From Callorhinchus milii (Eukaryota): a DNA stretch of 64,000 bases. Both the position numbers and the translations under genes were made by a program. Below the pieces are notes generated by a model. It saw only the letters and a list, made by a program, of their open reading frames with translations, was not told the origin of the DNA and did not search any database. Each line of letters opens with the position of its first letter. Position 1 is the stretch's first letter. Positions 2,129 to 13,578 of the stretch are shown piece by piece. The stretch lies in NCBI RefSeq assembly GCF_018977255.1, contig NW_024704742.1, positions 34,412,001 through 34,476,000 of the forward strand, written 5' to 3'.

Positions 2129-2174
2129 ATGGATTCCAACTGTCGCAAGCTTGTATCGGCTTGCGTCGATTTAT
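2129..2174 (+). CDS. PITX2: PITX2 isoform a/b first coding exon (exon 2109-2174), MDSNCRKLVSACVDL + 1 nt
   Basis: Polypyrimidine tract with ctgcag acceptor ending 2108, ATG at 2129, donor gtgagt at 2175. Peptide matches the vertebrate Pitx2a/b N-terminus METNCRKLVSACVQL. Confidence 0.93.
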
Positions 2175-3563
2175 GTGAGTAAATCAGTATTTCCCCCCCC
2201 CACCCACCCACCCCACACCTTTTATATCGTTGGAGAAATGAACTCCTCTGCGGGTGCTTGTTAATCCTTGTGCAGAATTTAGCCCAATTCTTGACACTTA
2301 ACTGCGACTGTCTTATGCATCATTGATTGTTGTACAGTTGAGAGCCTTTTTTCTCTGAACTCCACTATTTCCCGTATATCCAGCCACCAGCGTCCCCTGG
2401 ATAGCATAACCACACACAATTGTCATTTCGAAGCCAACCTCAGGCTTAGCCGAATTGATATATCAATACATATTTTTTTTTAAATTCATTTTAGGTGGTG
2501 CAATTTTTTTAAAAAAAAATAGAAAATAGTTCCCAGGTATAAAATGACTTTGAATGTGTTGGTAAATAAAGCATCGGACAAAATTAAACGGAAGATATAC
2601 ATTTTTTTATACAGGTGCGAAAACCAATGGTGGTAATTATTCGGCAAAAAATGAAATACAATCTATATATTTATTGCATTGGATGGCCATGTGTTTTAAA
2701 TGTATAAGAGTTATGTGTGTGTGCCTTTATTGTAAGCCTGAAATTGCAGATACCGATTGAGATATTAATCTGTGCAGAGTGACGCGCGTTGGTGATGTAA
2801 GTGGCGACATTAATTAAACAGACGCCAAGAGAGAGAAATCTTTGCTCTGAGTGCCATCAGCATCGTTCTACCCCCAGTCAATGTGCATAAACATTATTTT
2901 GCTGCTTCTCGCCCTAATGCGAGATCTAACGTCTTTAGTCCGGGATAGGGACATCAGTCAATGCCTCACAAAAAAACAAAATCAAAAGAAAACATATTGG
3001 GTTTCAGTGTTGCAACGAAAAAGTGCATAACATTATTAATGCCGCACAGCAGTAATGTGCATAAAGGGCTTGTTTTGATTTTAAATAATGTAAACAGTTA
3101 CATTTTACTATTCCACAAGCCAATGCCGCAAAACTATCGAAATTAAGATCTATTCAAATGCAAACACAGAAGAAATTATCTTTTAAAATGATTGTGCTTT
3201 CCATCAAATGCAGTACAGATGTTCTGTGCAATTATTGCTACCCACACAGAAGTTTATATCTATTTCTCATATAGTCTTACTGTTGCTTACTGCAGACATT
3301 CTTATATTATTTATTTGTAATCGCTTGGTAAGATTCATTCTGACGATTTCTGGCTCGATTGCTTTTAAACGTGAGATGTGTACGTCTGGAAAAAAAATGG
3401 ATCCCTGGTGTGCAGAATCGGTAGGAATGGTCGGATCTAAAAATTGGTGGGGATTGTTTAGAAATGTTGAAGGCCTAACAGCCACTGGCCAACGCGTTGC
3501 AGTGAAAATGTTTATAATCACATTACGTGATCTTTGTTGTTTCTGTGCCCATCTCTCTTGCAG

Positions 3564-3698
3564 CATCGCAGCCCTCTGCTATGGAGTGTTTATTTACGAA
3601 GGGCACCGAATTACGGAAACCTGAATTAACTTCTGCAACCGAAGCCGGAAACAGCAGAAAAGAGAGCAAATTCCAAAGGCAGAACCTCGACTCCAATG
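3564..3698 (+). CDS. PITX2: PITX2 isoform b cassette exon (135 nt, phase 1-1)
   Basis: ctctcttgcag acceptor, G|gtaagc donor. Encodes (S)SQPSAMECLFTKGTELRKPELTSATEAGNSRKESKFQRQNLDSN(E), similar to mammalian Pitx2b VQPAAVECLFSKDSEIKKVEFT...SKFFPRQHPGANE. Confidence 0.9.
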
Positions 3699-6600
3699 GT
3701 AAGCAAAATGGGAAAAAAAAAATGTCTCCAGTGCAAGTATATTCTCTTAATTCGAGCTCAGTCGGATCTGAAAGGTAACACTTTTGATAACTGTCCATTC
3801 TTTTGAAACTTACGTGAAAATTCAACCCTATGTTCTAAAGTAAACTTACATTTTTTTTCAGGTACAATAGTTACTTTATATTTTGTATTAGAGCGACCCC
3901 TGCAGTAACTTGGGTAAAGTGCAAGCTGTGCAAAATGCATCAGGGTTTATTTTGTATGCAAACCTTCCTTGTGCTTCCAAGTGTCTCGATCAAATGCAAT
4001 AACCAGGTGTTTACTATACAAAAAACACTCTATTTTCTTTCCTCGTGCCTAAATTCGAGCATATTGTGTTTTGCGAAACTTTGATTTCATATCTGCAGCA
4101 AAATACTGATTATTACCTCTCGGCTTGGCTTCATGTTATCCCTAAATAGCACTAAATGTTGGTGTTAAAATGTGGTAAATGAATGTTGCGAAAGTGGCAA
4201 TTTATTATGATCCAAACATGTCCACTCTCAGGGAGTGCAATTATTTTGAAAACTTTATTACCAACAGGTTAGTGTTCAATAGTAATGGGATTCTCAGGGA
4301 TTAAAAAAAACTCACATCAGATGTCTTTGTTGCAGAGTAAAGCGGTTATTCTCCACTTCTCATTTTAGTAATAATAATACCATGTTAATGGGCATATATG
4401 GCGTCTACATGTTATGTGCCAATCGATAATTTGATTTGACATTATGCTGCAAAATTAAGGATTAAATTGTTGATGTTTCAGTTTCAATATAAAAATGCCG
4501 GTAACTCAGACTCTGTTGTCTTTAGGTATCTTCTATATTTACTTTAAAATGATGATTCCCATTCACATTGGCTTTGCGTGACAAGGATTGCACTAAATCT
4601 GTCTGACATAATCCAAAAGTAAAAGTCGTTTTTGTCTGCTATCTCTACCGTTTAGATCAGTGATCTTACCTACACTCGAATTTCAGATGCATTTAATTAA
4701 CTGTTTTACCCAATATTTCATGATATGTACCGCAATATGACATGAAAATAAATTGAAATAGGGCAAACAGTCAATCCGTAAACTGTTATGGAATTAAAAG
4801 CCAATTTTCTGTAATTTGGCACTGTATCATTTCCGATGTCGCCAATAGTTTCAAATTTTGGATGCAGGACCTTTTGTTTGTATATTTCTTCTTATTGCTT
4901 CTTGTAATTTCTCTCCGGCCTTACACGAAATGTAAATTTCATTATATAAACGACATTTTTAGTTACAGCGATGTCAACATATATTCATGCGTGTGAAGTA
5001 GTTTTTTAAACGTCGCAGAGTCTGTAGTCTGTATTCCCATTTTTTTCCAGTTTGTTGACCTTAAGTGATACAGTAGTGTGTAGCAATAATAAACTTTTAT
5101 CCCTTTGGGTATATTATTATTATAACACAGTTGGAATGAAGTGTGATGTAAGTATCATCCATTTAATAGTCTGGAAGCCCCATATGATGTATGCAGTTGT
5201 GCGGGTGAAACATAGACACTATAAATATAAAATATATTCCCTGATTGGTTTGACTATACATTTTTAACAACTTATTGCTTTGCTGGTGCACATTGCTTTG
5301 TTTTTGGAACGACGAAACACTACAGCAATTTATCTTTGAGTTCCTTATTTTATAATGCTTCTCTATTTACTTTGGTAATCCTTTAATCTATAGTAGCATT
5401 TTGTATGGTGAGCTGTGTAAAACGGGACAGCAAATGGCGTTGATTGCAAGGGACTGATTTAAATGGAATTTTTCCCATATACGACGGGTGACACAATGCG
5501 GTGGACGTTTCATTTGTATGTATAATGAGCATGTGCATTTAAGGGACAACGGGAAATCTGTCAAATATCTACAAAAGAAAGTCCCCCCCCCCTTATAAGG
5601 TCGCTTTACTCTCGATCTGTTTTGTACAGTGTGCGTAATATATGCAGCAGTTGTTAGATTGACTCGAGGGAAAACTAAATGTATAATGAAAGCTTATTCG
5701 TGAGTAGGAATATACTAATGGAACAATTTGATGTCTTCTTAATCCTTTGTAAAAAGCTTTGACGTCTTCCTAATATTGACTGAATGGGTAATTAATGACT
5801 CTTCATCTTGGAGAATACTCAGTAATCCAAGATAGGCAAAAGACAACAAACCCAATGTATAAGACAACAAGACAGACTCAAATCAACCCAAACAGCGTCA
5901 ATTCATCCGTTTAACGCATTATAAGTTCTGGGAGCAATCCCTCGATAAATATGTGTAAATATAACCAAAAACAGAGACAAGGCCACGAAGCTGCTAATGC
6001 CATAATTCGAACCTTTACACGCCTAAAAATCACCATCATCTGATCTGAACAAGCAATCCAGCAATTGGATTTTTAATGTTTTACAACTGCAGATCGAGTA
6101 CAATTTTGTGATCATTCTGCTCCCCATTTGCTCAAATGGGAACTGCGGGTTAGATTTTGTTCAGTCATTACATTTGTGTTTGTTGAGTGCTCCTCCCTTG
6201 AGTTCGCTATTGTAAAAATGTTGAAATTGTTCAATGACCCCAAAGGAACAATAATCTGTGGTGTTTGAGTGCCAGTCCGTTTATAATGCTGAATAAAGTA
6301 GATTAAAATTGCAATGAGTGCCACATATGCTTTACTGCGAATGCCAAGTTAAATTTGGAAAGACAGGCAGACAGACACATAGACAGACAAACAGAAACAG
6401 ATAGACACACAGACACACGGAGACAGACGGAAACGCACTGAAAAAAAAATGTGCAAACTGGCTTTCTTGTCAGTTTTTCAGATAGATTTTAGGAACATGA
6501 ATGAATAAACGCACTATAGAGAGAGAGAGAGAGAATTAGACGGGCCGTGGGGGTGGGGGGGGGGGAACTGTGTCACTAGTTATTCACTATTTCAGGTGTA

Positions 6601-12308: not shown

Positions 12309-12516
12309 ATGAATTGTGCGAAAGATCCTTTGAATTTGGACCAGTTTAGCAGCAGCAGCAGCAGCAGCAGCGGCGGCGGCGGTAATAAATTGGTCCGGGA
12401 TCAATCGGCTTCTTCTTCTGTCATGGCTTCTGGTTTGCAACCGCTGCGAACGAGTGAGCCCAAGCACCGGCTCGAGGTTCACACTTTATCGGACACCTCC
12501 AGCCCTGACACCGGAG
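12309..12516 (+). CDS. PITX2: PITX2 isoform c first coding exon
   Basis: MNCAKDPLNLD...MASGLQPLRTSEPKHRLEVHTLSDTSSPDTG matches Pitx2c MNCMK...KHRLEVHTISDTSSPE. Donor G|gtaagg at 12517, phase 1. Confidence 0.96.
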
Positions 12517-13372
12517 GTAAGGCCGTTCTCCCCCCCCCCCCACCACCTCCTCCTTTCTGCATTTATCAGCCTTTTTCGATGTTTATTGCACTCACGTCTC
12601 GGGCGTTGCGCCAATTCCCTATTTTATCGCATTGCTCCGTCGTCCCGTCCCCCAGAAATAAACGGGAAGTGCCTTTTTGCCATCGGCAATCGTGCAACGA
12701 CTTATCCCGAGTTGCCTCGAGGCGATGCCTCGGGATTCCGCACATCGAAGACTTTTGCATTGCTTCCGATTTCGAAATGTATTTAAGCGTTTTTAAATGT
12801 CAATCGACGAGTTACAACCATTGATATCAATGTCACCTGCGAAATGAATGCCTTGGGTGAATCCGGCCGCAATTTTCGGTTGCACGTCTCGGAAAGAATG
12901 TTTCGCGCAGTTCAATAAAAGCGACGAACTTTTTTAACATTAAAAATAACATGTGCAATGTGTGCGAACAAGTTGGGAAGTTCAGCAAAATGGTACAAAC
13001 GAGGTTCGCGTTTCCCTTTCGCTCGTCCTTGCGCAGCGCTGCACACACACACACGCACACGCACACATGCACAGGATCAGCAACAACAGACTGCTAACGA
13101 ATTAAAACGGTTTAGAAGTAAACAGATTTATTTGGAATTCATTTATTTATTTATTTATTTATTTAATCTTGGGTCGGTTACAATACCTATTTGTAAGACC
13201 CACAGAACTCCGGGGGGAAAAAAAACATATCTTCGTGCAATGGAATTTTGCAATCTTGCAGTTGTTTCTCGTTACTGGAGTTTTCCCTTTCAGGTGTGTG
13301 TTTAATGGGGGGGTGGGGGGGGAGAAATAAACTTGGTTGCGATTATAAACGCGCTCTTGATTGTTGTTTCAG

Positions 13373-13578
13373 AGAAAGAGAAAATCCAGCAAAGCAAAAA
13401 CGACGACACAAATACAGATGACCCGTCCAAGAAGAAGCGACAGAGACGGCAGAGGACTCATTTCACCAGTCAACAGCTGCAAGAATTGGAGGCAACTTTT
13501 CAGAGAAATCGCTACCCGGACATGTCCACCAGAGAGGAGATTGCAGTTTGGACCAATTTAACTGAAGCTAGAGTCCGG
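13373..13578 (+). CDS. PITX2: PITX2 common exon: N-terminal part of the homeodomain (206 nt)
   Basis: tttcag acceptor, CGG|gtatgt donor. Encodes [50 protein letters not shown]. Confidence 0.99.

Follow-up and report, generated by a model that had tools for sequence, protein, structure and literature searches.

Pitx2 of the chimaera Callorhinchus milii is predicted to encode Pitx2b and Pitx2c but not Pitx2a

Exon structure of the Pitx2 locus

We analyzed a stretch of 64,000 nucleotides from the genome of the chimaera Callorhinchus milii (assembly GCF_018977255.1, contig NW_024704742.1, positions 34,412,001 to 34,476,000 of the forward strand), hereafter the window, which contains a complete Pitx2 gene on its plus strand. 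Coordinates below are window positions. The gene appears to have the usual vertebrate layout, with an upstream promoter serving exon 2 and the b exon, an internal promoter serving the c exon, and two homeobox exons shared by the transcripts of both. Its coding capacity differs from that of bony vertebrates at a single junction. The gene probably encodes Pitx2b and Pitx2c but not Pitx2a, and inclusion of the b exon is probably obligatory for any protein made from the upstream promoter.

Exon limits, read directly from the sequence, were confirmed by tblastn searches of the window with Pitx2 proteins from sharks (P0309, P0303 and P0171), bichir (P0259) and frog (P0038). These searches recover exactly five exons, namely exon 2, the b exon, the c exon, the homeobox exon and the last coding exon, all on the plus strand; the exon plan agrees with the scheme of Pitx2a, Pitx2b and Pitx2c exons in PMC5753117. 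Exon 2 (2109..2174) follows the acceptor ...tctctgcag/AT, where the slash marks the exon border, and has its ATG at 2129. It encodes MDSNCRKLVSACVDL together with the first base of a split codon, and ends in GAT TTA T with the donor TAT/gtgagt. Whether exon 2 joined directly to the homeobox exon gives an open frame depends on the final base of exon 2, a T at 2174. The b exon (3564..3698) is 135 nucleotides long and runs from phase 1 to phase 1, beginning with CA and ending in ...AAT G/gtaagc. Its acceptor, ...cccatctctcttgcag/CA, has a long pyrimidine tract and its donor, ATG/gtaagc, is of the GTAAG type; judged by sequence, both splice sites look strong. The coding part of the c exon, which belongs to the second promoter, spans 12309..12516 and ends in ...GGA G/gtaagg. 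The homeobox exon (13373..13578, 206 nucleotides) follows the acceptor ttgtttcag/AG AAA GAG and ends in phase 0 with ...CGG/gtatgt, its end being at 13578 and not later. The remainder of the homeodomain and the OAR motif are encoded by the last coding exon, which spans 15479..16042 including the stop codon.

The identity of the gene is supported by domain content and by comparison with its paralogs. The Pfam Homeodomain family matches the homeobox exon with an E value of 1.5e-15, and the OAR family matches the last exon with an E value of 2.3e-09. Identity of the last exon is 94-97% to proteins named Pitx2 and 72-79% to Pitx3 and Pitx1. The three exons specific to Pitx2, namely exon 2, b and c, were all located in the window by tblastn. 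By these sequence criteria, the gene is a Pitx2 ortholog and not Pitx1 or Pitx3. By tblastn, the c exon matches Scyliorhinus canicula Pitx2c at 72% identity, and both it and the last exon are distinct from their counterparts in five sharks and a sawfish. At 12340-12385, an (AGC)n/(GGC)n run in the coding part of the c exon yields SSSSSSSSGGGG, where shark Pitx2c has only NSSSG. Exon 2 is single-copy in the 991.5-Mb assembly of 1762 contigs, and an own-genome search of that assembly found no second copy or haplotig of it.

A stop codon at the join of exon 2 and the homeobox exon

Sequence and frames, read directly, agree with the initial annotation on its central observation. With a T at 2174 as the last base of exon 2 and AG at 13373 as the first bases of the homeobox exon, the direct join reads T/AG, a stop at codon 16 that closes a frame of 15 codons. 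Pitx2a requires an open frame across precisely this join, and the join reads TAG. The route through the b exon is open, as had also been annotated: exon 2 and the b exon meet in T/CA (Ser), the b exon and the homeobox exon in G/AG (Glu), and exon 2, the b exon and the homeobox exons together encode a Pitx2b protein of 316 amino acids, which can be aligned over its whole length with the shark b-type proteins. The c exon joins the homeobox exon in the same G/AG (Glu), and the c exon with the homeobox exons forms an open frame of 325 amino acids that corresponds to Pitx2c.

Given this junction, the upstream promoter would yield a homeodomain protein, Pitx2b, only through transcripts that include the b exon. 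Skipping of the b exon, the source of Pitx2a in bony vertebrates, would here give only the 15-codon frame that terminates in the junction TAG. The b exon would in this way be an indispensable coding part of mRNAs from the upstream promoter, and its apparently strong splice sites fit an exon that is always or nearly always included. The skipped transcript would presumably be degraded. Nonsense-mediated decay (NMD) generally acts on premature stops that lie more than 50-55 nucleotides upstream of the last exon junction, and the stop of the skipped mRNA lies 204 nucleotides upstream of that junction.

We enumerated the possible splices around this junction, taking every GT or GC donor from the ATG to the first in-frame stop in the intron and every AG between 13300 and 13445. 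The initial annotation had stated that no acceptor rescues the frame. This holds for the three nearby acceptors that it listed, with exon starts at 13375, 13379 and 13381, which give TAA, TAG and TAA, respectively. It does not hold for all AGs, as an internal AG acceptor at 13416..13417 on the plus strand (exon start 13418) stays open and is the sole acceptor to keep the canonical donor open. The join at 13418 reads T/AT (Tyr) and would give the product ...CVDL-Y-DPSKKK; the stretch that precedes it is purine-rich and has no pyrimidine tract. Further open combinations require donors such as CTT/gtatcg or TGC/gtcgat, or GC donors, all remote from the consensus. Two other candidates were rejected. 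The tandem donor TGA/gtaaat (+4, at 2178) does not match the frame of the canonical acceptor, and a splice of the bird type, leading from either exon 2 or the b exon to the c-exon leader, is closed in the c frame by a TAG. This TAG, at 12306-12308 immediately 5' of the c-exon ATG, shuts both the exon 2-to-c and the b-to-c fusions that are annotated in birds (e.g., P0236 and P0240). The b exon appears to be the only plausible productive route from the exon 2 N-terminus.

The junction residue in sharks and bony vertebrates

We compared the junction residue with that of other vertebrates using a protein search with the homeobox exon. This search gave 681 matches at E <= 1e-20 from 1118 candidates, of which the best 120 were listed and extended with the members of their clusters. 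Four shark entries are at the top of the search among the 120 of 681 matches listed. The shark b-type set comprises nine proteins from four species, which we take to represent three orders, all galeomorph: Scyliorhinus canicula X1, Scyliorhinus torazame X1 together with a fused model, Chiloscyllium punctatum X1-X4, and Cetorhinus maximus X1-X2. Each of the nine reads MDSNCRKHCVEL-S-SQ[PS]SAVEYLF..., the motif around the junction being ...CVEL-S-SQ[PS]SAVEYLF, and their junction Ser aligns to the T/CA Ser of the window. The comparison across sharks lends indirect support to the T at 2174. One of the S. torazame entries, P0309, also bears the accession BAK57345.1, which we take to be a cloned cDNA from the type and date of the accession (2011-type).

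The resemblance to sharks extends beyond this one residue. Shark b-type N-termini are 76-81% identical to the window over 79 aligned residues that span exon 2, b and the first part of the homeobox exon, and the homeobox exon is 96-99% identical. The sharks differ from the window in that three exon 2 residues are missing (CRK---HCVEL) and in having models with N-terminal extensions from 5' exons. In Pitx2b, the split codon reads as Ser with T at 2174, as Ala with G, as Thr with A and as Pro with C. The sharks also carry Ser at the split codon, which makes it most likely that the T at 2174 is genuine and of long standing. Among 169 sampled words of the region 2080-3720, 84-89% are present in four genome-sized DNA sequencing runs (four samples from one study) out of 24 runs listed under one organism label, and two runs that are presumably RNA contain small shares (0.07 and 0.06); these figures refer to word presence only.

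The position differs in the bony vertebrates examined. A G-initial codon is present at the junction in all 69 bony-vertebrate proteins in the sample that contain exon 2. Among them are 38 a-type proteins from mammals, squamates, frogs and teleosts, in which the residue is Glu (26) or Asp (12); at the protein level this agrees with the initial statement that the base is G in mammals and teleosts. The 31 long forms, which include the bichir b-type, have Gly (27), Asp (3) or Val (1). The gene otherwise resembles Pitx2 of bony vertebrates such as mouse, human, chick, Xenopus and zebrafish. Both have an exon 2 with MxxNCRKL..., a b exon of about 45 codons that keeps phase 1 at either end, a c exon served by a second promoter, and homeobox and OAR exons common to all forms. 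The difference lies in the last base of exon 2, which is G in bony vertebrates as deduced from the 69 proteins, such that skipping yields Pitx2a, and T in the window, such that skipping yields TAG.

No a-type was found among the 16 cartilaginous-fish Pitx2 proteins examined, which are nine b-types, five c-types, one c-like model and one partial sequence; non-coding skipped isoforms would not show up among proteins. The cluster that holds the shark c-types was represented by 15 of its 58 members. With the b exon alone as query (44 amino acids, longer proteins), three candidates were obtained and none scored. A search with the last exon returned no cartilaginous-fish Pitx2 as a cluster representative among the 120 of 369 matches listed, and in ten clusters from that search the cartilaginous members, among those listed, are shark and sawfish c-types only. 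The sole jawless-vertebrate model examined, P0285 of the lamprey Lampetra, is without exon 2 or a b-type N-terminus.

Alternative explanations

Several points weigh against the reading that the gene lacks Pitx2a and depends on the b exon. There is an in-frame cryptic acceptor at 13418, and near-constant inclusion of the b exon is a prediction from its splice sites. The T at 2174 rests on one assembly and on the protein argument. The shark b-type entries other than BAK57345.1 are gene models, and the shark Ser is known from protein only, so that a codon of the form A/GY would give Lys on the a-type join and leave it open. Sampling of b-types covers galeomorph sharks, with ray, skate and squalomorph b-types absent from the sample, and an a-type cartilaginous-fish model could be hidden among the unlisted cluster members.

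The codon used by sharks separates a trait of cartilaginous fishes from one that is confined to chimaeras. If the shark junction Ser were A/GY, an a-type with Lys would be possible in sharks and the stop codon would be a peculiarity of chimaeras. This is unlikely, although it has some foundation in that Ser has two codon families and A/GY is one change away from the G/GN of bony vertebrates. It would require that Ser arose twice at one split codon by different codons, and it sits poorly with the lack of an a-type among the 16 cartilaginous-fish entries. If instead the shark Ser is T/CN, its presence in the chimaera and in sharks of three orders traces the junction Ser back to the root of the living cartilaginous fishes. 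On the evidence of the proteins, and with that proviso, the state is probably ancestral to the group.

A second possibility concerns the fate of the skipped transcript and would add to the absence of Pitx2a rather than replace it. In regulated unproductive splicing, the b-skipped mRNA with its junction TAG would be produced and then removed by NMD, which would tune the output of the upstream promoter. The gene resembles known cases in that an alternative splice puts a stop more than 50 nucleotides before the last exon junction, a position that fits an NMD substrate, and skipping of the b exon is normal in bony vertebrates, as the 38 annotated a-type proteins attest. It differs from those cases in that the skipped form is a prediction from sequence alone. 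Both splice sites of the b exon look strong, and the exon is present in all nine shark upstream-promoter models, though non-coding isoforms are invisible among proteins. We regard a regulatory role for skipping as rather doubtful, and favor simple, near-constant inclusion of the b exon.

An assembly or sequencing error at 2174 is very improbable, as is a rare private T in a species that normally carries G and makes Pitx2a. The initial annotation had allowed for a single-base error and drew attention to N calls at 8211 and 8233. The base does come from a single assembly and the N calls are present. They are the only two in the whole window, 22 bases apart within the intron that separates the b exon from the c exon, and are 6 kb away from exon 2; the window itself lies within a contig of more than 34 Mb. 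Only T yields the Ser of the nine shark b-types, and an error at 2174 is unlikely because a chance error would have to recreate this conserved residue. An a-like protein made through non-canonical sites is hardly credible either. Examples would be the canonical donor with 13418, or the weak donors CTT/gtatcg (2152) or TGC/gtcgat (2164) with the second AG of the cagAG acceptor (exon start 13375). Such splices would keep a frame without stops into the homeodomain. Against them, a pyrimidine tract is missing in front of the internal AG, which comes 45 nucleotides after a strong acceptor, the alternative donors have no G at +5 and match little of the consensus, and no such protein occurs among the 16 cartilaginous-fish entries.

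Upstream leader and repeats

The stretch 1462..1572 on the plus strand is a candidate for a non-coding first exon belonging to the upstream (a/b) promoter. Its 5' end is undefined, and a candidate donor, CTGTAG/gtgagg, follows position 1572. By tblastn, the segment 1462-1530 is 57% identical to residues 1-23 of basking-shark isoform X1 (P0303; MRLITGHRLP...), and the window counterpart of the P0303 N-terminal extension runs into an in-frame stop after 16 codons. The N-terminal extensions of the shark models may be translated 5' leaders or upstream open reading frames, with the real start at the conserved methionine of MDSNCRK. The 20 bases upstream of the ATG in exon 2 (2109-2128) are open in frame, reading (D)KAVTGG, and resemble DKQLTGGV and DKPLTGDI of sharks; this likeness reflects either a leader conserved at the nucleotide level or a sequence that is coding in sharks.

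Two repeats lie downstream of the gene. A long, strand-biased repeat of short period occupies 18181-20275, with minus-strand frames that read SLTHSLTHSL... and a GC skew of 0.36 over 18001-20000. A long impure microsatellite of (TG)n type is found at 22945-23438.

Discussion

Pitx2 isoforms are usually given as three forms conserved across vertebrates, as in PMC8377849. The window departs from this picture in one of the three. What is new is a lineage variant of a known isoform system, and no new mechanism is involved. In the open full-text literature, with subscription journals outside the search, we found no papers on Pitx2a or Pitx2b in cartilaginous fishes.

How the variant came about can be read in either direction. 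The initial annotation held that the lineage had either lost Pitx2a or turned skipping of the b exon into an off switch. Its premise stands at the level of sequence, in that the a-type join creates a stop and the b route alone stays open from this N-terminus. The word lost goes beyond the data. Loss and primitive absence cannot be separated here, as no outgroup with both exon 2 and the b exon was found. We suggest tentatively, as a possibility that we would not yet favor, that Pitx2a is not pan-vertebrate. The ancestral jawed vertebrate may have made only Pitx2b from the upstream promoter, with skipping becoming productive once G was acquired on the stem of bony vertebrates. Alternatively, Pitx2a may have been lost early in cartilaginous fishes, in which skipping would perhaps persist as a damper coupled to decay.

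The significance of these findings is a modest one for evolutionary developmental biology. An absence of Pitx2a would call for caution with isoform-specific probes and knock-downs in sharks and chimaeras. If the whole class encodes only Pitx2b and Pitx2c, then Pitx2a would be dispensable for the eye, pituitary, tooth and muscle programs common to cartilaginous and bony vertebrates, and either Pitx2b covers the roles of Pitx2a or Pitx2a is a later addition. Separate roles of Pitx2a and Pitx2b remain poorly resolved, and a lineage without Pitx2a would offer a simple comparative test of a-specific function.

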